Below, in pieces: positions 1,212-24,346 of a stretch of DNA of 35,939 nucleotides (its first letter is position 1; every line of letters starts with the position of its first letter). Both the position numbers and the translations under genes were made by a program. The DNA is from a virus. Its lineage: Duplodnaviria; Heunggongvirae; Uroviricota; Caudoviricetes. A model generated the notes under the pieces. It was not told the origin of the DNA. It did not search any database and saw nothing but the letters and a program-made list of their open reading frames with translations. Location: IMG/VR virus record IMGVR_UViG_2627853983_000005. The stretch is one strand, 5' to 3'.

Positions 1212-4055
1212 TCAATCTTTATCGTAAAAACTGCCACGCCCGGCACGGGCGCGCCGTTCCATTTCTGCCCTGACCATTTCACCGACCAGTTTCGCCAGTT
1301 CGCGGGGATTCTGCGTAACAACGTTATGCAGATGAACATGAATTTCACCACCAAATCCGGAGGCAACAGGCTCCCGGTTACGGGAAGTTACAGGAACTGA
1401 TGCCACTGGAGATCGTATAGCCTCCGCCACCGGGCGGGAGCTGGCCGCAACAACAGGGACCAGCGCCGGAGGCAGCGGAGCCGGGACCACGGGTGTGATA
1501 TTAATTGCGGGGGCAGGCTTACTGACCTGCGCAATCTTCCGCTCCTGCCACTCCCCACGAACAGCAAGTGCTCGGGGCAGGTTTTTAAAGACAATATCGC
1601 CGGGGCCAATGCGTTTTTTCGTCTCCTCAACCAGCTTACCTGTGTTATCAGCAATTTTGCTGAGTCTGCGCAGCGTACCGGTATTGCTGTCTGTGAGCGG
1701 TTTATTGTCTTTGGGGTTATCACCTCCGGTGCCATTGCCATTTTCCACAGGCTTCGGCGGATTGATTTTCGCCAGGTCCCCCTGAAGCAAGGCAACCTTG
1801 TCCTGAAGAATGGCCGCACGCTGTGCGTCTTCGATTTTCTTGCGCGCCCTTTCCGCTTCATCCGGAAGCACACCAAGCTTTTCAAGTATCCACGCCAGCG
1901 TATCCAGCAACATTTTTGCAGGTGTCAGAACAAGTTGTAACGCACCGCCAAGAACGTTACCGAATATCTCGCCAGCACTGGTACATTTATCCAGAGTTTC
2001 CTTGCTGGACTCCATCGGAGACAGCAGCGATTTAAACCAGTTAAACACCTGGCTGATCCCACTCCCGATTGCGTCAAAAACAGGACCAAACCGTTCAAAG
2101 GTTTCGCGCAACGGGGTCAGCCTTTCCATAATCCCGCTGAACACCCCGGCAAAAAATGCCCTGATGGGATCCCAGTATTTCCAGATGAGAACGGCAGCTC
2201 CGGCAAGCGCAGCCACGATAAGGCCGACCGGACTGAACAACGCCCCGATAGCGCCCCCCAGTAACGAAACGGAACCCGTCACCATTCCCCATAGTGCTGG
2301 CAGGAGTCTGACAGCATTCATTGAACCGGTCAGGAGGGAAAAGCCAAGACGCAGTTTTGCCAGCGGGCCAGCAAGCACACCAATAGCCAGCGACAACGAG
2401 CCAACCGTTGCAGTCATTGCCAGCAACGCACCGCCTGCTATCAGTAGCTGGCGCGTCAGTACCGGATGGGCCTGCGCCAGCGAGGTGATTTTTTCAAGCA
2501 CCCGCGTGAGCCACTGCGTGACAGAACGCAGCGGACCGTCAACCAGATCACTGATGCGAATACGAAGACCTTCCCATGCGCTGTCGAGATTTTTCAGGTC
2601 CCCATCAAGATTATCGGCCATTACTTTTGCAACGCGATCGGCCTCTCCCCTTGCCCCCTGCAATTCTCTGGTCAGTTTTTGCAGCTCTCCTGAACCAGCC
2701 GCCGCAACAAGCGTCTGCAAACCAACGAACGCCTCTTCTCCGGCGATGTCCTTGAAGAAGGAAACCTGGTCCACCTGTCCGTATTTTTGTGTCGCCTTAT
2801 AGAGATCAAGCAGCACATCCTCCATCGGGCGCATTTTGCCTCTGGCGTCAGCAACTGACACCCCCAGCTCTTTCAGCGCATCAGCCGCAGCTTTTGGCGG
2901 TGATGCAAGGCGGGACAGACTTGCGCGCATGGCCGTACCAGCATCGCTTCCACGAAGACCATTATTGGCAAGCATCCCGGCCATGGCTGCCGCTTCTTCA
3001 AGACTGATACCAAGTTTTGCGGCAACCGGACCGGTATACTTCATGGTTTCGCCCAGCGCGCGTAAATCAGTATTGGTCCGGGTGAATGCCGCTGTCAGCG
3101 TATCGCCAACCCGGTCCATTTGATCGGCTGTCAGGTTGAACTGTGTGAGGATATTGGAGCCTATATCAGCCGTCTCGCCGAGTTCGACGCCACCTGCCAG
3201 CGCCATATTAAGAACACCGGGCAATGCGGCCTGAATGGCCTGCGGAGTAAAACCAGCCATTGCCAGAAAGCTCTGCCCACTGGCGGCATCACTCGCAGTA
3301 AACTGTGTTTCAGAGCCAAGTTTTAACGCCTGCTCACGCAGCGCCTTAAACTGCGGGCTGTTTTTGTCGATTCGCGTCAGCGCCTGAACGCGGGACATCT
3401 CTTTGCCGAACCCGATCGCGGGCTGCAAAAAACGCCCGGCAGCATAGCCGCCCGCCGCTGCCGCACCAATTGCCAGCGCACCACCTGTTTTCAGTTTTCC
3501 CGCGGTTTCCTGCGCGCGCGAATACCGCTCACGAGCCTGCGTTACACGCGCAAGCGCCTGCCGTTCGCGTTCAAGCTGGTTGTTGTATTGTTCGGTGCGT
3601 CTGATGGCCTGCTGGATGGTGTTATCGCTGCCTGTCAGGGAAATGCCGTGGCGTTTCAGTTCTCCGCCAAGCTCCCGCATTTTCTGAATTTCCCGTGTGC
3701 GCGATTCATTCAGGCGTTCAAGCCGGGTGCTTAACTGCTGCATCAGCTTTTGTTGTTTTTCGCTGAGCACTGTACCCGTGCGTTGTAACTGATTAAGGGC
3801 GTTAAGCTGGCGTCGTGCTTTCACGATACCCGCATCCGCTTTACTGACAGCGTCGCGGGCGCGCTCAAATGAACGCGCCTGACGCTCGAGATTTTTGATC
3901 GCCCCCTGCGTTCGCTGAATGGAGTCACCAAACTGCCCCATCAGGCGGCGGGCGTTTTCGGCAGGCCGGGTCAGCCTGTCAACGGCGCTGAAAGCGACCC
4001 GGATGTCAAGAGTCTTCATTATCTGCATTCCCGCTGCGAAGTGCCGCCCGCTCAC
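1212..4055 (-). CDS. T: Tail tape measure protein gpT
   Basis: 947-aa ORF, coiled-coil N-terminal half, Gly/Ala-rich hydrophobic central segment, follows E/E'. True start may be an internal Met near 4019-4028. Confidence 0.85.
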   Translation of the reverse strand: MSGRHFAAGMQIMKTLDIRVAFSAVDRLTRPAENARRLMGQFGDSIQRTQGAIKNLERQARSFERARDAVSKADAGIVKARRQLNALNQLQRTGTVLSEKQQKLMQQLSTRLERLNESRTREIQKMRELGGELKRHGISLTGSDNTIQQAIRRTEQYNNQLERERQALARVTQARERYSRAQETAGKLKTGGALAIGAAAAGGYAAGRFLQPAIGFGKEMSRVQALTRIDKNSPQFKALREQALKLGSETQFTASDAASGQSFLAMAGFTPQAIQAALPGVLNMALAGGVELGETADIGSNILTQFNLTADQMDRVGDTLTAAFTRTNTDLRALGETMKYTGPVAAKLGISLEEAAAMAGMLANNGLRGSDAGTAMRASLSRLASPPKAAADALKELGVSVADARGKMRPMEDVLLDLYKATQKYGQVDQVSFFKDIAGEEAFVGLQTLVAAAGSGELQKLTRELQGARGEADRVAKVMADNLDGDLKNLDSAWEGLRIRISDLVDGPLRSVTQWLTRVLEKITSLAQAHPVLTRQLLIAGGALLAMTATVGSLSLAIGVLAGPLAKLRLGFSLLTGSMNAVRLLPALWGMVTGSVSLLGGAIGALFSPVGLIVAALAGAAVLIWKYWDPIRAFFAGVFSGIMERLTPLRETFERFGPVFDAIGSGISQVFNWFKSLLSPMESSKETLDKCTSAGEIFGNVLGGALQLVLTPAKMLLDTLAWILEKLGVLPDEAERARKKIEDAQRAAILQDKVALLQGDLAKINPPKPVENGNGTGGDNPKDNKPLTDSNTGTLRRLSKIADNTGKLVEETKKRIGPGDIVFKNLPRALAVRGEWQERKIAQVSKPAPAINITPVVPAPLPPALVPVVAASSRPVAEAIRSPVASVPVTSRNREPVASGFGGEIHVHLHNVVTQNPRELAKLVGEMVRAEMERRARAGRGSFYDKD

Positions 4056-14645: not shown

Positions 14646-17468
14646 ATGACGGCAGAGTACCTCAGGGACTGGCAACAACCGCGCCACGCAGTGGGGCGTG
14701 AAGGAACGGGGATCCCCGCTCCTGAATCCGCGCTTTCCTCCTGGCTGGATGCCTACCGGGCAGAGAACGAGCGCCGCCAGGAAATGGCTGATGCGGCGTT
14801 CTCAGCCACGCCGCTGGGCAACCTGATTAATAAAAGCCTGGACGCACAGGAAAAACAGGACAAAACCATCACACTGGCAGGAGACGCCAGAAAACAGGCA
14901 CGTGGCGCGGTGGATGAAGCCATGGCCTCGCTGCGCCTGCTGCCGTCCTATCTGCGCGATCCGCTTATTCGCCACCTCTCCTTCCTGCGCAAAAAACAGG
15001 AAGCCGATCGCCGGAAAGGCAAAAAGAGCTGGCAGGCGGAACGCTATGCACGCGGAACCCTGCGCAAAATATTCGAACGTCTGGATAGCACTGACGGACG
15101 CTGGCTGACACCGGGTTATCGCTCCCTTGCCGGACGCGAACGCCTGGACGATTTGCTTTACCTGCCGCAGCTCAACAAACACCAGATACAGACGCTGGCC
15201 ACCATGACGGCGGCGATGTTCAGCAGCACCTTCGAAAAACTCTGCGATGGCTTTGGCGCGACCGATGGCGAGCTGACCATGGATGTAACCCTGAAGGCGT
15301 ATCAGATGCTGGCCCGCATGGCGTTACACCTGCACGCCATGCCTCCACATTATGACGCACTGACAACAGACAAAGACCGGAGGAACGAACCGGACACGGA
15401 GCTGCTGCCGGGCGCAATCCTTCGCCTGACCTGTGCGGAATGGTGGAAACGCAAACTGTGGCTGTTACGTTGCGAGTGGAGAGAAGAACAACTCCGCGCC
15501 GCCTGTCTGGTTTCCAGAAAAACATCACCCTATCTGAGCCAGGACGCGTTAAGCGAGTTTCGCGCACAGCGCGAGAAAACACGCGATTTCCTGAAAAGTT
15601 TCATGCTGGAAAATGAAGACGGGTTCACGATTGATCTCGAGACAGTGTATTACGCGGGAGTAAGTAACCCGGTTCACCGTAAGGCAGAAATGATGGCCAC
15701 CATGAAGGGACTGGAACTTCTGGCCGAAGCCCGTGGCGACAAAGCGGTGTTTCTGACTGTCACCTGCCCGTCAAAATACCACGCCACAACGGAGAACGGT
15801 CATCCGAATCCCAAATGGAACGGGGCCACAATGCGCGACTCCAGCGATTACCTGGTTAACACGTTTTTTGCGGCGGTCCGCAAAAAACTGAACCGCGACG
15901 GCCTGCGCTGGTATGGCATCCGCACGGTGGAGCCTCATCATGACGGCACCGTGCACTGGCATATGATGGTCTTTGCACATCCGGAAGAAATCGACACCAT
16001 TGTGTCCCATACCCGCGATATTGCCATTCAGGAAGACCGCCACGAGCTGGGCAATGATATTACTCCGCGCTTTAAGGTGGAGTATGTCGACGGCTCAAAA
16101 GGCACGCCAACCAGCTACATCGCCACCTACATCGGAAAGAACCTGGACAGCCGCGCCGTGGATGGCATCGACCCGAAAACGGGCAAGCCACGCGTGGACC
16201 ACGAAACCGGAAAATCAATGGCCGAGAGCGTGGAGCGCGCCATCGGCTGGGCGCGCCTTCACCGGGTCCGTCAGTTCCAGTTCTTTGGCATCCCCTCCCG
16301 TCAGGTGTGGCGTGAACTGCGCCGCCTTGCCAGCCAGATGGCACGCAATCCGGAAGGCCCGCAACGGCTGAAAGATGATGCAATGGATGCGGTACTCGCT
16401 GCCGCCGATGCCGGGTGTTTTGCCACCTACATTGAAAAACAGGGTGGCGTGCTTGTTCCACGCAAGGACTACCTGATTCGCACCGCCTACGACCTCGCAG
16501 ATGAGCTGAACGATTACGGCGAACAGAGCGTACAGATTTACGGGATCTGGTCACCACTCATCGGGGAATCCTCCCGTGTGTGCACGCATCCGGATAACTG
16601 GAAGCTGGTAAGACGTAAACCGGAAGCGGAAGACAGCGCCCGCGAAAATGGTTTTGACCTTCAGGGCGGCCCTGCCGCCCCTTGGACTCGTGGCAATAAC
16701 TGTCCCCGTGTACAGGAAACGGACAACAACGGGACAGAACAGCCGGAAGAACGGCCAGCACCGTGGCCGCAGCTCCCTGACGGCGTTGAAGTGAACGAAT
16801 GGATGCGCTCACTGAAACGACACGAACGCCGGGCGCTGATGCGTTCGCTTCGTGACAAACAGGCAAAAAACAGCAGCGATGAAATGCAGAGCTGGACACA
16901 GAGCCGCAAACAGCAGCGGCCTTTGCCTGATAACCACGAATTACTCGCTAAAGAATGGCGGGAGTCTGCTGAATCTCTCGGCCTGCATATCGGTGAACAA
17001 CAGATGCAGCACCTGTTACGGGGCGGCAGTCTGTACGTTGACGGCAGCATCATTGCACCGCAGGGATTTGAAATTGTACGCAAACCGGATACCCGCCCGG
17101 ACAGCCGAATCACGCAGCTCTGGCAGCGCCTGAGCCGTAATCATGGCGTAAGCAGCACGGAGATCCGCCATAACCCGGTCGCCAGCTATCTGGCACAGCT
17201 GGGGGCATCAGACCCTGAAGCCGCCGCACGCCTGGCATCCACACTTCAGCAGGGCCAGAACACCATGAAAACACCCGTTACCGTGCTTTCTGACATGCTG
17301 CGCGCCATCCGCGACGCAGAGCACGCACAGAGAATCAGTGAAACCACTGAACGCGCCAGCCGCAAAGCAGACCTGCTGCGGGGTGGCCTGACCAGTGGAA
17401 ACAAAAAACAGACAGAAACGGGACTTACGAATCCCGTAAATGAGCAAAAAACGCGCAGCGATATATGA
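14646..17468 (+). CDS. A: Rolling-circle replication initiator gpA (HUH endonuclease)
   Basis: HUH motif HHDGTVHWHMMVFAHP and paired-Tyr motif TSYIATYIGKN; 940 aa, about 180 aa longer than recalled P2 A at the C-terminus. Confidence 0.9.
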   Translation: MTAEYLRDWQQPRHAVGREGTGIPAPESALSSWLDAYRAENERRQEMADAAFSATPLGNLINKSLDAQEKQDKTITLAGDARKQARGAVDEAMASLRLLPSYLRDPLIRHLSFLRKKQEADRRKGKKSWQAERYARGTLRKIFERLDSTDGRWLTPGYRSLAGRERLDDLLYLPQLNKHQIQTLATMTAAMFSSTFEKLCDGFGATDGELTMDVTLKAYQMLARMALHLHAMPPHYDALTTDKDRRNEPDTELLPGAILRLTCAEWWKRKLWLLRCEWREEQLRAACLVSRKTSPYLSQDALSEFRAQREKTRDFLKSFMLENEDGFTIDLETVYYAGVSNPVHRKAEMMATMKGLELLAEARGDKAVFLTVTCPSKYHATTENGHPNPKWNGATMRDSSDYLVNTFFAAVRKKLNRDGLRWYGIRTVEPHHDGTVHWHMMVFAHPEEIDTIVSHTRDIAIQEDRHELGNDITPRFKVEYVDGSKGTPTSYIATYIGKNLDSRAVDGIDPKTGKPRVDHETGKSMAESVERAIGWARLHRVRQFQFFGIPSRQVWRELRRLASQMARNPEGPQRLKDDAMDAVLAAADAGCFATYIEKQGGVLVPRKDYLIRTAYDLADELNDYGEQSVQIYGIWSPLIGESSRVCTHPDNWKLVRRKPEAEDSARENGFDLQGGPAAPWTRGNNCPRVQETDNNGTEQPEERPAPWPQLPDGVEVNEWMRSLKRHERRALMRSLRDKQAKNSSDEMQSWTQSRKQQRPLPDNHELLAKEWRESAESLGLHIGEQQMQHLLRGGSLYVDGSIIAPQGFEIVRKPDTRPDSRITQLWQRLSRNHGVSSTEIRHNPVASYLAQLGASDPEAAARLASTLQQGQNTMKTPVTVLSDMLRAIRDAEHAQRISETTERASRKADLLRGGLTSGNKKQTETGLTNPVNEQKTRSDI

Positions 17469-18906: not shown

Positions 18907-19749
18907 TCATGATGAAATTGCCGAAGTTTTTTTATCGTGCTGAAGTACCGCAAATGCCATTAAAACCTCAAGAGAATAGCGGCGATAATACTTAACAAAA
19001 CCATAATAAAATACTCGGGATGCAGCAATACAAAACAAGAGAAGAAAACAAAAAGGTAACAGTCTGATATTTATATCTATTAAAAAGGATAGAAGGAGCA
19101 GGAACATAAGCAACCAGACTGAAGCGAGAAAAACAAATGTAATGTTTCTACAAAAACCATACAAAGCAACATAGTTTTGCATTTTCACCTGATGATTTTT
19201 AGAATGTTCATACACATAATGATAAGCAAGGCGAAAAAGATCGCCCCTCAAGCCCTTACGTCGATATAGCGTAGATACAGAAAAAACATTTATATAACCA
19301 TCTCGTATTTGCGGCCAAAAGACTTTAATAAGTATAGAATGCAGTGTGGTTTTATGATGTTCTGCTTTATCAAAAGCTGATACAGGAAATAAAAAAACTC
19401 CACGAATAAAATTAACTATACTGAACTTAGTATTATGTCGTTTTATTTTCAGGGAGCTTCTTTTAGAAAACAGATAAATTGAAGGATACCCAAGTTTACT
19501 GTTCATGTATTTTTCAATTAAACAGGATGATAGAATAGATATGAAGTGACCTGAAATATATGATAGAACGATTAATACCACATATATAAATACACTTATT
19601 ATTTCTTTATATTTCAGGATATGGTTAAGAATACCTTCTATATAAACAGGGTTAATTTCAATAGAAAACAAAAAAAGGATAAACAGGAATAACCCACCTG
19701 GAATTAGATAGCCCAAAAAGTCATAAAATGAAAACGGATTCTGTGTCAC
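18907..19749 (-). CDS. Hypothetical integral membrane protein (2 N-terminal and 2 C-terminal TM helices), second gene of AT-rich cassette
   Basis: 280 aa; GTG start with CAGGGGGAAG RBS; very low GC; hydrophobic segments at both ends with a soluble middle. Confidence 0.6.
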   Translation of the reverse strand: MTQNPFSFYDFLGYLIPGGLFLFILFLFSIEINPVYIEGILNHILKYKEIISVFIYVVLIVLSYISGHFISILSSCLIEKYMNSKLGYPSIYLFSKRSSLKIKRHNTKFSIVNFIRGVFLFPVSAFDKAEHHKTTLHSILIKVFWPQIRDGYINVFSVSTLYRRKGLRGDLFRLAYHYVYEHSKNHQVKMQNYVALYGFCRNITFVFLASVWLLMFLLLLSFLIDINIRLLPFCFLLLFCIAASRVFYYGFVKYYRRYSLEVLMAFAVLQHDKKTSAISS

Positions 19750-19788
19750 ACTTCCCCCTGTGTTACTTGTAAATTAAAGGGTAAAACA

Positions 19789-20286
19789 TTATTTGTTTTT
19801 CCGTAAAGGATTAGCTTTCCATCTTCTTACTAACCATTCGAATTCTTGATATGTAGTATCCGAATTAATGCTTTCTCTGATTGCTTTAATTAATGGCTCG
19901 GCAATATCATATGTCTCTACAACTGTTGTGTAAGATGTTCTTTTTATCATTTTTTCATCATAAATACCTTCACGAATACTTACAGCAACTCGCTCGTAAA
20001 AATTTAAAATATATTGAAATTTTCGACGCTCGGCCATTTCTTCATCTGTTATTATGCAACCATCACAAGGAAAAACATAAGAACGAAATGATTTGCCTGA
20101 ACGATGCACTTGTTTCAGGGTATGCAATGACTCTATATATTGCATATCTTGCCGACTCTCAAAAAGAAAGTTGGCCGTTTGAGTTTTTTTTGCGGTACGC
20201 ACATTGTAGATAATGGTTCCAATGGCAACCAAAACGCCAAGCAGAACAATAGCATTGCTGATGATTTGTAGTGTTATTGGGTTCAT
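19789..20286 (-). CDS. Hypothetical single-pass membrane protein, first gene of AT-rich cassette
   Basis: 165 aa; N-terminal TM helix MNPITLQIISNAIVLLGVLVAIGTIIY then soluble domain; weak RBS. Confidence 0.6.
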   Translation of the reverse strand: MNPITLQIISNAIVLLGVLVAIGTIIYNVRTAKKTQTANFLFESRQDMQYIESLHTLKQVHRSGKSFRSYVFPCDGCIITDEEMAERRKFQYILNFYERVAVSIREGIYDEKMIKRTSYTTVVETYDIAEPLIKAIRESINSDTTYQEFEWLVRRWKANPLRKNK

Positions 20287-20299
20287 CCTATTTCATCCA

Positions 20300-20326
20300 T
20301 AAAAAAGGCGGGGAGCAAATCCCCGC
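20300..20326 (-). terminator. Rho-independent terminator/attenuator just upstream of AT-rich cassette
   Basis: On minus strand: stem GGCGGGGA/TCCCCGCC, 5-nt loop, then T6 run; ends 14 nt before cassette start codon. Confidence 0.55.
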
Positions 20327-21009
20327 CTCATTAGAGGTCAACGTAGCTTAGAAACCATCAAATTCATCATACATTTTTTTCATATCAACCCCCTCATAGA
20401 AATCATAACCACGTTTTGTGGTTTTTGTGACGTATAAACTACATCAAAGGCAAGCCACGGTCAAATATATAGGCATGCTTACCTGCACAAAAGTGCACAA
20501 ATTTGCACAATTTTTTTGAACGACTTTTTACCCTTCCGGCCCGCATGGCGGCTGGATCCGTCAAGGATCCGTGCGTGCACAAAAAAACGCGCTTTTTCTG
20601 CGCGCAGGTGACGGGGGAACAGCCCGCGTTTCAGGGGGTAAATAGCATTCCCTGAACGATGTCGCAGAGACACAACAGAATGGCCATATTTCTCACGCTG
20701 AGCATGAAAAAGGCGTGAGGGCTTTTGATTTGATGGGGTGAAAGGTAAGGCCGTCAAAATCGCACTGAGGCAGCGAGAACATGCAGTCAACGCGGTGGAA
20801 TTGCGTAAGAGTCTGACCGTCGATGGTGGCGATAAACTGGAAGGCGTCGTGAAATTATCTGATTGATACAGGAGCTGGAGAGCCGGGGCATAAATTTTTT
20901 ATGCCCCGGCGAAGCAGCAGACAAGCGAAGCGCGTCAGCGATACGGCACCTTGCCGACCATACTTCATAAGTGCAAAATACGAGCAAAGAAATCAATGGA
21001 GGCTGTCTT

Positions 21010-21534
21010 ATGGTCATTAATTACAAGCAGTTAAGAGAAAAACGGGAGCAGGTAAAGGAGAGCTTTCGCCGCAATGAAGATCTGACCCCGCTTGTACGCC
21101 TTGCCCAGGGCATTGTTGATGCTTATGAAATCTCGCTGGAGCTGCCATCACAGACCTGGACAGATAGCGACGGTAATCGCCAGCATTACGTTTCATGCGG
21201 ACTGGAAGCAGCCGAAGGATTTCGCAGAATGCCTTTATCCCAGATCCCTGCCGCTACCCCCAAAGCACGGGGCAGCAATGATGAGCGAAAACTGACTTTT
21301 AGTATTGAAACGGTGGTTGACGACACACCTGGCGAAGTCGCGTTCGTGCACACTCCTGTTTCGATCGCAATGTATAACGATGAAATACAGGTTCGCGTTA
21401 ATAATAATATCGTGCCACTTAAAGAAGGTAATTCACCCTACACCACCGTTTGTGAAGCCATTCAATATTACGTTCTCTCTGAAATTGATAATCTCAAGCC
21501 TGACGGCACCCAGAAAATGGTTCAACTCTGGTAA
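21010..21534 (+). CDS. Hypothetical protein between cos-proximal region and portal gene
   Basis: ATG 21010 with GGAGG RBS; 174 aa; convergent with Q. Confidence 0.5.
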   Translation: MVINYKQLREKREQVKESFRRNEDLTPLVRLAQGIVDAYEISLELPSQTWTDSDGNRQHYVSCGLEAAEGFRRMPLSQIPAATPKARGSNDERKLTFSIETVVDDTPGEVAFVHTPVSIAMYNDEIQVRVNNNIVPLKEGNSPYTTVCEAIQYYVLSEIDNLKPDGTQKMVQLW

Positions 21535-21540
21535 AAAGGA

Positions 21541-21565
21541 CAGCCCCATCACGGGGCTGTTTTTT
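21541..21565. terminator. Bidirectional terminator between convergent ORF and Q
   Basis: Stem CAGCCCC/GGGGCTG with 5-nt loop, T6 on + strand and T-rich on - strand. Confidence 0.55.
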
Positions 21566-22595
21566 CATCAAGAAGAGCATAAGAGTTAAAACGGATCACC
21601 TCTTCGCCAAGCCAGTCATTGATGTGCTTCATAGCCTCCATAACGGGCATCAGCTCGTTAATTGCGTAAACCCGCGCTGCCTTCTCCACATCGCCAAACG
21701 CACTTTTTTCGCCCGGCATCGCCCCCATCAGTTGCGGCGGAACGCGGTGCGCAGCCAGCACATCATCACGGGATGCCGCCTTAACATTCATGAATTCATC
21801 TTTTGCGGTGATCTGCTGGAACGGCAAAATTTGCACCCCCTCTTTGCCCCCGTTGGGCGCATGAATGAGCACGTTTTTAAACGCACCACCACCACGTGCC
21901 CCCTGTAGCGTTTCTTTCAGGGAGTCCATGCTTTCGCGGTTTACCTGCGCTGCACCGATGTAGATGATGCACCCGGCGTGGGATCCGTTGTCGTAGTACA
22001 GTTTTCTGAACATGTCCGCCGAATGAGAAAGGCTGGCCGAGAGTAATGCGCCAAGATATTCCGGCATGCCGTAGATTTCCTGGTTAATATCCGGATTCAT
22101 CAGGTGGCACACTTTGCCAGGACGAAACTGAAACGCGTCCTTGCCATCCTGCACATACCACCATGATTCAAGATCGCTTCCGCGTCGCATGTATTTCGCC
22201 AGGGCGTGCCGTAATTTAAGCGGTTCGCCGAGCATATTGCTTCGAAGCTCAAGGAATGCGTTACCGAACACAAACCAGTCCAGCGCCAGCGCCGAGAAAT
22301 CCTGCCGGGAAAGCAGCGGGTGCGGGATGTAGCAACCGAGTAATACATTGCGCTTAAAGTAAAGCGCAGACTGATGCCAGGACGTTTGCCGGGCTGCTCT
22401 TGCCAGACCGTACCAGTCCACCGGGGTTTCATACCACCGCCCGTTATCAGCACAGTACATATTGTCCAGCAGGTCATGCCCGGTCAGGCGATAAGGACCA
22501 TCAAATGTGAATGCACTGAGCGATGATTCTTTCCTGAGCGCATCAGCGAGATCAATGCGTGAACTCATGCGCACTTTTTTATTTTTTCTGCTCAT
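21549..22595 (-). CDS. Q: Portal protein gpQ
   Basis: 348 aa; start overlaps terminase stop; position and size as P2 Q. Confidence 0.9.
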   Translation of the reverse strand: MSRKNKKVRMSSRIDLADALRKESSLSAFTFDGPYRLTGHDLLDNMYCADNGRWYETPVDWYGLARAARQTSWHQSALYFKRNVLLGCYIPHPLLSRQDFSALALDWFVFGNAFLELRSNMLGEPLKLRHALAKYMRRGSDLESWWYVQDGKDAFQFRPGKVCHLMNPDINQEIYGMPEYLGALLSASLSHSADMFRKLYYDNGSHAGCIIYIGAAQVNRESMDSLKETLQGARGGGAFKNVLIHAPNGGKEGVQILPFQQITAKDEFMNVKAASRDDVLAAHRVPPQLMGAMPGEKSAFGDVEKAARVYAINELMPVMEAMKHINDWLGEEVIRFNSYALLDEKTAP

Positions 22596-24346
22596 CAGAA
22601 CTCCATAACCATGAAACGCTCGTTTTCTCCTTCGCCGCCAATTGGTTCGTTAATGACAGCAAGCATGGTTGCCCACGCAAGGTCGCCGTGGCTGATCCCC
22701 CTCGCGCGGTCCGTTTCGTAAGTGATAAAGCCGCCCGGTGTTTTCACCTTACGCACGGCGTTAAAGGCCGCGACCAGCTCGCGTTCGGCGCGATCGTATT
22801 CCCACCGCCCGGCACGCATTATTTGCAGCATTTTCAGTACCAGCGACCGTTTTGATGACAGCGTGAAGGTGTACGGAATAGCAGCAGGGAAAAACCGCTT
22901 CACTATCTGATAAACAGCCTCCCCGTTCCCGCCCGTCACATCAATGCCGATGTGTTCCACGTTGTAGCGACACGTGAACTCTTCAATGACTCTGGCCTGT
23001 TCTTCAAACTCCAGCCCCTGAACGCGTCGCGTCTCCACCGTTCGAAAACGGCCGCCAGGAACAGCCGGAGGAACCACCACGGACACAGCGCCGCTGTCGC
23101 CGTTGCCACTACTGCCGTTTGCGTCATACCCAATCCATACCGGACGATTCCCCATCGGGCGGGGAGCAAAAGGTTTCCAGTCTTTCCAGTCGTCGTATCC
23201 GTCAACACCGCAGCCAATCAGGATATTCAGGTTAAATGCCGATTCCCCTTCGCGGACAAACTCACACATATAGAGATTGAGGAACTCGTCTTCGGTGTTT
23301 TCATCACGAATTTCGTCGATATCGGTGTGTTTCCAGCCGTGATTAACCACATCTTCCAGCGTGACAATTTGCCGCCACGTCCGGTCAGGGCAGATAAGCC
23401 CATTATGCAGCGTTTTCCAGTCCACAGAAAAACGCTGGCGTTTATGCGAGGCCTTTTTCTCGTTCCAGCGGTCGCCGTTCCAGTAGGCGTATGCCTCGTG
23501 CGTTTCGGTGGATGGCGTGGAGAAGTAGGTGCGCCGCAGTCCGCTGAGGGTTGCCATAGCGCCAGCCACCTTGCGCAGTTCAGCAAAGCGACTGACCCAG
23601 AAAAATTCATCAAAATAAAAATTGCCCGTATAGGACTGTGCCGACGCAGCAGAAGTGCCGAGAAAATGCAGCTCTGCGCCGTTGGAGAGGATGATTTTAT
23701 CGCCCCCTTTCAGCTCCACATCAACTTCAGCCGCGGCCTTCTGAATAATGCTTTTAAACTGGAACGCCTGACGACGCGACGCAGACAAAAAAATCTGGTT
23801 ACGCTGGTAAGGTTGCGCCACATCGTCACGCAGCGCCATCAGCAGTGCTTCCTGTGCAAAATACCAGGTCGCCCCAATCTGTCGGGATTTCAGGATCATC
23901 CTGTTACGTATCCCGGCTTCCCTGCAAAGGGTCAGGGAGTCAAACCAGCCCCGCTGATGCCACTCCAGCCTGCTGATGATTTTTTCCCGCAGTGCGGCAA
24001 TCTGTTCCGGCGTGAAATGATTTTTGAGTTTTTTCGCCCGGCCTTTCTTTCCTGCGGCCATCACATCCGGCTGGCCATCATGCAGCTTTTTAAGCTGCCG
24101 GGTCAGCAGGTCTATTTCCTTAAAGTCACCGCCTGTTTTATTCTGTTTTTCAGTAAGCTGGATGAGGCGCGCATCGATGGACTGCGTGACACGCTGCACG
24201 GGTGGCGTTTCATCCCACTGGTCACGTTTTTTCCACGCATAAATCGTGTTCGGGTTTATTCCCATCAGACGTGATATTTCTGCGGGCGGATAACCCTGCC
24301 AGTAAAGTTGCCGCGCACGCTGGCGCACAAAAGCGTCCTGAATCAT
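22595..24346 (-). CDS. P: Terminase large (ATPase) subunit gpP
   Basis: 583 aa; N-terminal HTH; Q-P pair divergent from O as in P2. Confidence 0.9.
   Translation of the reverse strand: MIQDAFVRQRARQLYWQGYPPAEISRLMGINPNTIYAWKKRDQWDETPPVQRVTQSIDARLIQLTEKQNKTGGDFKEIDLLTRQLKKLHDGQPDVMAAGKKGRAKKLKNHFTPEQIAALREKIISRLEWHQRGWFDSLTLCREAGIRNRMILKSRQIGATWYFAQEALLMALRDDVAQPYQRNQIFLSASRRQAFQFKSIIQKAAAEVDVELKGGDKIILSNGAELHFLGTSAASAQSYTGNFYFDEFFWVSRFAELRKVAGAMATLSGLRRTYFSTPSTETHEAYAYWNGDRWNEKKASHKRQRFSVDWKTLHNGLICPDRTWRQIVTLEDVVNHGWKHTDIDEIRDENTEDEFLNLYMCEFVREGESAFNLNILIGCGVDGYDDWKDWKPFAPRPMGNRPVWIGYDANGSSGNGDSGAVSVVVPPAVPGGRFRTVETRRVQGLEFEEQARVIEEFTCRYNVEHIGIDVTGGNGEAVYQIVKRFFPAAIPYTFTLSSKRSLVLKMLQIMRAGRWEYDRAERELVAAFNAVRKVKTPGGFITYETDRARGISHGDLAWATMLAVINEPIGGEGENERFMVMEF

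Follow-up and report, generated by a model that had tools for sequence, protein, structure and literature searches.

The window, the whole 35,939-nt stretch of DNA analysed here (Caudoviricetes; IMG/VR record IMGVR_UViG_2627853983_000005), is a P88/P2-like (Xuanwuvirus-type) prophage. Following the minus strand from the gpQ portal gene, a short non-coding stretch leads into a two-gene cassette, a ParM/ParR-like pair and then the gpA replication gene (Table 1). Rousset et al. 2022 (PMC9122126) described this cos-proximal gpQ-gpA interval of P2-like phages as a hotspot, and the leader unit considered here is the opening of the variable cargo cassette at this gpQ/cos-gpA site. Backbone similarity to other P2-like phages stops at ~20484, as in the case of phage PhiR44_2, which is 99.9% identical up to that point and carries different cargo beyond it. 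Therefore the region 20300-20470 belongs to the variable cargo, whose 5' end it forms, and not to the phage backbone, and the position of this boundary indicates that the leader unit moves with the cargo rather than with the backbone. Two further terminator-like hairpins already lie between gpQ and the cassette, hence late-operon transcription is probably halted before the leader.

Table 1. Positions of the leader elements, cassette genes and neighbouring phage features in the window.
Feature	Position	Strand	Detail
gpP terminase gene	22595-24346	minus	
gpQ portal gene	21549-22595	minus	
Terminator-like hairpin between gpQ end and cassette	21560-21540	minus	
Terminator-like hairpin between gpQ end and cassette	20605-20587	minus	
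Candidate sigma70 promoter	-35 20464-20459; -10 20441-20436	minus	TTGACC, 17-nt spacer, TAGTTT; inferred from consensus
Inverted repeat AACCAC-N5-GTGGTT	20423-20407	minus	spacer aaaac; 6-bp hairpin
Shine-Dalgarno sequence of micro-ORF	20395-20389	minus	GAGGGGG, 5 nt before ATG
Micro-ORF	20383-20348	minus	11 codons + TAA, MKKMYDEFDGF
Spacer with clade-specific box (T)TGACCTCT	20347-20330	minus	18 nt; ACCTCT at 20338-20333
TTGACC after micro-ORF	20341-20336	minus	
Intrinsic terminator	20329-20305	minus	stem GAGGCGGGGA, loop TTTGC, stem TCCCCGCCTT
T6 run of terminator	20306-20301	minus	
Gap between T-run and DUF4760 start	20300-20287	minus	14 nt, ATGGATGAAATAGG
DUF4760 gene	20286-19789	minus	165 aa; Pfam PF15956, E = 1.8e-34
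Second cassette gene	19749-18907	minus	280 aa; ~4 transmembrane/hydrophobic segments
gpA replication gene	14646-17468	plus	

The first cassette gene encodes a DUF4760 protein with one N-terminal transmembrane helix and a cytoplasmic all-helical domain, according to hydropathy and an AlphaFold2 model (pLDDT 91.5). The protein falls in PHROG 2284, of unknown function, and matched only unknown-function PHROGs; PADLOC-DB 2.0 yielded neither a match nor a model, and none of the Pfam, PHROGs and PADLOC scans returned a toxin annotation. Its alignment contains the invariant basic residues K34, R45, R68, K115 and R137, which could bind an acidic ligand. The AlphaFold2 model is similar to the EP domains of plant EDS1/PAD4. 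The product of the second gene matches PHROG 12528 (unknown function) and, weakly, Csx27 (PADLOC, 1.1e-5). This gene is an optional passenger that most other DUF4760 loci lack: it was seen beside the DUF4760 gene in the E. coli prophage lineage of the window and not elsewhere, the DUF4760 gene standing without it in the no107 prophage and in all lambdoid and chromosomal loci.

Upstream of the DUF4760 gene, transcription from the candidate promoter is predicted to start at ~20429, giving an RNA of ~129 nt to the terminator. This promoter is the positional homologue of TTGAC(T/G/A)-17-TA(A/G)NTT, which is found in most of 43 unique leaders, 50-75 nt ahead of the micro-ORF; a second consensus match, GTCACA-18-TATGAT at 20431-20402, is not conserved. 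The inverted repeat between promoter and micro-ORF may represent an operator or, within the leader RNA, a 5'-proximal stem-loop. Only close relatives share it, the copy on plasmid pMS21199B being CCACA-aga-TGTGG. A different repeat, ATTACC-N5-GGTAAT, with invariant arms and a variable spacer, lies over the -10 and start region of the leader promoter in 21 of the 43 unique leaders, from several clades, and has been lost from the copy in the window. It is found 36-91 nt upstream of the micro-ORF ATG (L086, L087, L093, L102, L107, L118, L120, L123 and others), and its form looks like that of an operator for a dimeric DNA-binding protein.

A sequence-only reading of this region had described the 11-codon ORF with its GAGGGGG ribosome binding site, the TTGACC after it, a GC hairpin with a T6 run, a cassette start codon 14 nt further on with only a weak ribosome binding site, and a hairpin upstream at 20407-20423. 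Each of these is present on the minus strand: the ORF is conserved as protein, the terminator occupies 20329-20301 (the 20326-20300 noted earlier is slightly off for the same object), the ATG at 20286 is preceded by a weak SD-like GGATGA (20298-20293), and the upstream hairpin is the AACCAC-aaaac-GTGGTT repeat. The argument that no room remains for a promoter also holds, as a 14-nt gap cannot contain one, and hence the DUF4760 gene can be expressed only by read-through. The GGATGA is the homologue of GGAG(A/G) in other clades. A five-codon mini-ORF, MDEIG and a stop, overlapping the DUF4760 start via ATGA, was considered and rejected: relatives do not keep its frame, and the conserved ATGGA(T/G)GA is therefore better taken as a degenerate SD.

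The last backbone-conserved bases before the cargo (20484-20510) comprise 2.7 copies of TTGTGCA with a 10-bp period, placed ~55-81 nt before the point at which cargo transcription is predicted to begin; in P2-like prophages of Xenorhabdus, too, the leader has a similar array ahead of it. The array in the window may serve in packaging or as a cos-proximal site, may anchor recombination, or may be an upstream element of the promoter. This array, upstream in the backbone, is the sole one detected, there being no tandem repeats within 20297-20466.

Recurrence of the micro-ORF and selection on its peptide

The arrangement of ORF, hairpin and gene was found again in ~60 independent loci, and it is this recurrence that decides against a chance occurrence. 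The recurring micro-ORF has an SD, 8-13 codons and the ending [KR]-D-[DET]-x-[DEG]-G-[FVL]-stop, with a GC hairpin after it. All complete DUF4760 loci examined, prophage or chromosomal and over a range that reaches from E. coli to Pseudomonas and the Xanthomonadales, have this pair in front of them. Three diverged E. coli copies encode MKKMYDEFDGF, MKKVFDEFDGF and MKKRYDEFDGF; besides synonymous substitutions, they differ where G:C has become A:T in the terminator stem, a compensatory change.

Three very large collections were scanned with a degenerate DNA pattern that stands for the peptide, and matches came from 7 loci in representative genomes (Klebsiella, Atlantibacter, Xenorhabdus and an enterobacterium), from 37 viral contigs and from 23 metagenome contigs. 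These matches amount to 44 unique elements, just two of which are chance occurrences inside longer ORFs (L050 and L055), the remainder being leader elements. As the DNA pattern forced the motif, loci were also gathered through the DUF4760 protein alone, and the sample for co-occurrence consisted of 39 viral loci, 12 distant homologues (lambdoid, P2-like and chromosomal, with ~40% identity at the lowest) and 280 E. coli genomes. All complete loci among the 39 viral ones, which represent 29 distinct upstream regions, carry a micro-ORF ending in DEFDGF and a stop; the 10-codon form MKKFDEFDGF, missed by the pattern, was recovered in this way. The 12 increasingly distant homologues, checked one by one, had the micro-ORF without exception (12/12), each with its own SD, then a GC-rich hairpin, then the DUF4760 start.

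Diverged peptides include MVNYIRDEFEGF in Providencia, MRYSDEYEGL at a chromosomal locus of Entomohabitans, MKKCDEFDGF and MKKFDEFDGF in the lambdoid tail region of Yersinia, MEKFDEYEGV and MKKFDEYEGV in Klebsiella and Serratia, MKRIICDEFEWV in Photorhabdus, MIKLVKRDDYEGF between dinB and queA in P. aeruginosa, MTFKRDDYEGF among the distant DUF4760 homologues, and MKDTDGGL or MKDTSGGL as the Xanthomonadales type. An SD (GGAGG, GGGGG or GGGAG) precedes the micro-ORF in all homologous leaders. The enterobacterial sample has D(-6) and E(-5) without exception and G(-2) almost always; all that remains in the Pseudomonas and Xanthomonadales types is D(-6), G(-2) and the hydrophobic last residue. Neither MKKMYDEFDGF nor its homologues contain a regulatory codon run or a repeated regulatory codon.

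In ORFs extracted with a loose motif filter (unfiltered inspections found no locus without an ORF), the mean pairwise difference over the last six codons was 0.079 at position 1, 0.056 at position 2 and 0.530 at position 3, and the adjacent non-coding flanks differed at 0.59-0.74. As the first two positions are near-invariant and the third near-saturated, it is the amino-acid sequence that is selected; this codon-position pattern shows the peptide to be under purifying selection. Such strong amino-acid-level selection across the Gammaproteobacteria makes the leader far more credible than a single sequence would imply.

The module also occurs on its own. Phage-plasmids of the pMS21199B type carry an inserted 175-bp segment with promoter, micro-ORF and terminator, and without the DUF4760 gene. 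Comparison of pMS21199B (L003) with pMB9698_3 (L125) located the insert at 2990-3165 of the former, between a backbone terminator and ATGG and flanked by a 9-nt GCCTTTTTT repeat. Likewise, Xenorhabdus bovienii has two orphan modules with intact ORFs, followed by genes on the opposite strand. The junctions suggest that the T-runs of terminators serve as microhomology for cargo exchange, and the orphan modules may be recombination remnants, the plasmid junction falling within the GCCTTTTTT microhomology. A 33-aa hydrophobic ORF on pMS21199B was rejected as a target of regulation by the leader, as it belongs to the backbone and is present in ~50 plasmids without the module. The converse arrangement, a DUF4760 gene without the micro-ORF, was absent from the loci examined, except for truncated contigs and copies interrupted by IS421. 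Across the compared loci, promoter, micro-ORF, terminator and DUF4760 gene are conserved together.

The terminator and candidate RNA switches

The terminator stem in the window (20329-20320 with 20314-20305) has 10 pairs, 7 of them G-C, and a dG of -18.9 kcal/mol. It is the strongest of nine terminator-like sites in a 3-kb region, where shuffles gave 2.8 +/- 1.7. In an alignment of 28 diverse leaders made for structure analysis, RNAalifold identified the terminator hairpin as the sole conserved structure, and found no conserved alternative helix. By pair counts in these 28 leaders, 88.6% of the cells in the core helix were paired and both sides had changed in 5 of 8 pairs, with pairing at ~51% after a one-column slide of the partners; this covariation shows that compensatory changes maintain the hairpin. 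The U-run is short in a few distant loci (L112, L113 and L118). A scan of 19700-21700 against Rfam 15 (E-value <=10) brought no family near its gathering threshold, the best scores being 19.3 bits for SorX (threshold 46.6) and 16.7 for isrP (threshold 45), both from the terminator only.

Several candidates for a switch acting on this hairpin were assessed. An antiterminator was sought by computing, with the 3' arm of the terminator left out, how probable it is for the 5' arm to pair with leader RNA upstream of it, relative to 60 dinucleotide shuffles per sequence; over 43 leaders the mean z was 0.02, and no leader exceeded 2. A helix between the micro-ORF SD and the ACCUCU box was rejected, with 71.5% of cells paired against 69.3% in shuffles, no covariation, and the box itself missing outside the P2-hotspot clade, the only clade in which (T)TGACCTCT is conserved. 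Pairing of this box with the SD region of the DUF4760 gene also lacked covariation. In several copies RNAfold lengthens the terminator stem outwards (UCUAU:AUGGA), by which the DUF4760 SD would be sequestered; this extension was likewise set aside, as it varies on one side only. Nor is there a fixed geometry between ORF and hairpin: the distance from stop codon to hairpin is commonest at 16-18 nt, the value in most copies, but ranges overall from 12 to 56 nt. The size of the ribosome footprint is known, and this variable spacing probably extends beyond it, hence a ribosome at the stop codon could not be placed to block the hairpin. These substitution and pairing patterns give solid support for selection on the peptide sequence and on the hairpin rather than on an RNA switch.

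An IS4-family element, IS421, is inserted at one and the same position in the terminator loop or 3' arm (~20311) in L005 (E. coli MSI001), L024, L037, L044 and L079. In several E. coli records this insertion splits the promoter and micro-ORF from the DUF4760 gene.

Candidate modes of action

Taken together, the ORF and hairpin are, on the comparisons above, a deeply conserved leader that was previously undescribed. It is set apart from known arrangements of upstream ORF and terminator by selection on the peptide and by the absent antiterminator. The terminator most likely sets a fixed ratio by leaking, with plentiful peptide and little DUF4760, and the peptide would either be a partner of this protein or act in cis, as an acidic nascent chain of the "hard-to-translate" kind.

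We tentatively favour the first of these, while holding it to be plausible rather than probable: a fixed, leaky terminator would set a high ratio of peptide to DUF4760, and the peptide would act in trans on the protein. The locus would then be a small autonomous module, in which a sigma70 promoter is followed by a micro-ORF with strong translation, by an intrinsic terminator and by the gene of a DUF4760 membrane protein that is translated only weakly. Most transcripts would stop as a ~130-nt micro-ORF mRNA, yielding much peptide, and a minority would read through, yielding little DUF4760 protein. The selected product may be the acidic peptide of 8-13 residues with its free hydrophobic C-terminus (...D-E-F/Y-D/E-G-F/V/L), perhaps a short-lived regulator or antidote that works in trans on the helical domain which DUF4760 has in the cytoplasm. 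If host gene expression stopped, the ratio of peptide to protein would shift, following the antitoxin-terminator-toxin logic of ToxIN.

Four considerations lead us to favour this trans-acting peptide. Firstly, it needs no undetected RNA switch. Secondly, it accounts for both the universal terminator and the stand-alone modules. Thirdly, the gene is never seen alone, and the peptide module sometimes is. Fourthly, the ToxIN operon, a type III toxin-antitoxin system, shares the layout of a promoter, a small abundant product, a ratio-setting terminator and an effector made by read-through, and both are found on mobile elements involved in phage defence. The two nevertheless differ in their parts: the ToxIN antitoxin is a tandem-repeat RNA, whereas the upstream product of the DUF4760 locus is a translated peptide from a leader without repeats, and the ToxIN toxin is an endoribonuclease, whereas DUF4760 is a helical membrane protein. 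Against a trans-acting peptide, we know of no bacterial cytoplasmic peptides of 8-13 residues that act in trans, and peptides of this length upstream of genes are usually cis-acting leader peptides.

The alternative, which we consider possible if rather doubtful, is that the nascent peptide acts in cis, the acidic chain causing the ribosome to pause, arrest at the stop codon or drop off. This could be an EttA-dependent intrinsic ribosome destabilisation, as for MgtL, or an arrest, as for TnaC, SpeFL and MsrDL; ribosome occupancy of the leader would then tune DUF4760 in response to Mg2+, energy state or translation stress, such as phage infection. An ORF of 8-13 codons with a strong SD, directly upstream of a gene and with conserved stop-proximal residues, is typical of regulatory leader peptides. 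In E. coli, ribosomes pause or drop off where acidic residues cluster near the start of the nascent chain; EttA/YbiT rescue such sequences and MgtL makes use of them (PMC11282234; PMC11162784), and the D-E-x-[DE] of the DUF4760 leader (D-D-x-E in Pseudomonas, D-x-D in the Xanthomonadales type) fits the class with acidic residues adjacent or one apart (PMC11282234; PMC11162784). However, di-acidic motifs are not sufficient for the effect (PMC11282234), and acidity alone fails to explain the invariant G and the hydrophobic last residue.

[quoted passage not shown] TnaC, SpeFL and MsrDL have conserved residues right before the stop of a short upstream ORF and a terminator after it, as here, but in these systems, of which MsrDL acts on an intrinsic terminator, the stalled ribosome covers or remodels a regulatory RNA, whereas the DUF4760 hairpin is at no fixed distance and probably outside the footprint. 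Of the marks of an arrest peptide, the DUF4760 leader has conserved residues towards the peptidyl-transferase-centre end of a chain selected for its amino-acid sequence; for pausing, arrest or drop-off the match is one of sequence class only; and overlap of the paused ribosome with a terminator arm or an SD-sequestering helix is not found. What stands against a cis-acting chain is the want of any route in these sequences from the state of the ribosome to DUF4760 output: there is no antiterminator, the SD-sequestering helix is unsupported, and the hairpin, typically 16-18 nt past the stop codon, is inferred to be out of the ribosome's reach.

A more specific form of the trans-acting peptide, which we regard as unlikely, is that of an antidote or ligand, continuously made and fast degraded, that sits in the EP-like domain of DUF4760; the terminator would fix its excess, and a shut-off of expression would let the effector fire. 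Were this true, the trigger would be a phage, or loss of the element, shutting off host expression, and the locus would represent a new kind of module for abortive infection or addiction, its protein antitoxin smaller by far than any other known; the modules that stand alone on phage-plasmids would in that case serve as anti-defence decoys.

It is very improbable that the ~130-nt transcript is mainly a trans-acting sRNA, possibly with a dual function, or that the hairpin is an insulator against phage transcription and the ORF incidental. The short unit ends in a terminator with a U-tail, the module stands alone on plasmids, and there are weak, sub-threshold resemblances to sRNA families, from the terminator only, all of which would suit an sRNA. 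But the three-base periodicity of substitutions means that the ORF is selected as protein, and outside ORF and hairpin the RNA is as poorly conserved as its flanking differences indicate, with no Rfam family at threshold; as to an insulator, the two terminators between gpQ and the cassette are there already.

Least credible of all is ribosome-mediated attenuation of the trp/his/phe type, in which the position of the ribosome selects antiterminator or terminator and which an SD-led ORF and an intrinsic terminator directly before a gene would suit, as there is no regulatory codon run, RNAalifold gives a terminator only, two candidate helices fail covariation tests, the 5' arm has no excess upstream pairing, the spacing varies, and the amino-acid sequence is under a selection that attenuation does not need beyond its regulatory codons. 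Thus the sequence-only reading was right to see a genuine leader of ORF and terminator at the head of the cassette, and its likening of this leader to leader-peptide attenuation is not supported in the classical sense. The resemblance to trpL, hisL, pheL, thrL, leuL and ilvL is that of a short SD-led ORF, an intrinsic terminator and a first gene reached by read-through. Unlike those attenuators, the DUF4760 leader has neither antiterminator nor anti-antiterminator, its peptide is itself conserved, and the gene it controls encodes a membrane protein of prophages and islands rather than belonging to a biosynthetic operon.

Place of the leader in the P2 hotspot and among upstream ORFs

In the supplementary hotspot table of Rousset et al. 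2022 (PMC9122126), DUF4760 (WP_001068329) and a hypothetical protein are recorded next to StbA/ParM ~197 times, at the same location and with the exact gene set of the window. That study neither names nor tests the cassette, and mentions DUF4760 only in this table; a term search of its main text found no leader, terminator or DUF4760. In the wider literature searched, nothing was found on the peptide or the leader, and DUF4760 had a passing mention only.

The mechanism can be tested with a construct of ~200 bp. The choice of construct matters, as a DUF4760 gene cloned without its leader, or behind a foreign promoter, would have lost half of the system. The short list of bacterial upstream ORFs with a selected amino-acid sequence gains an unannotated micro-ORF, and one attached to a cargo that ranks among the commonest uncharacterised ones in the P2 defence hotspot. 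Either mechanism would depart from textbook attenuation, being a micropeptide partner whose stoichiometry is set by a terminator, or an acidic nascent-chain sensor without an RNA switch.
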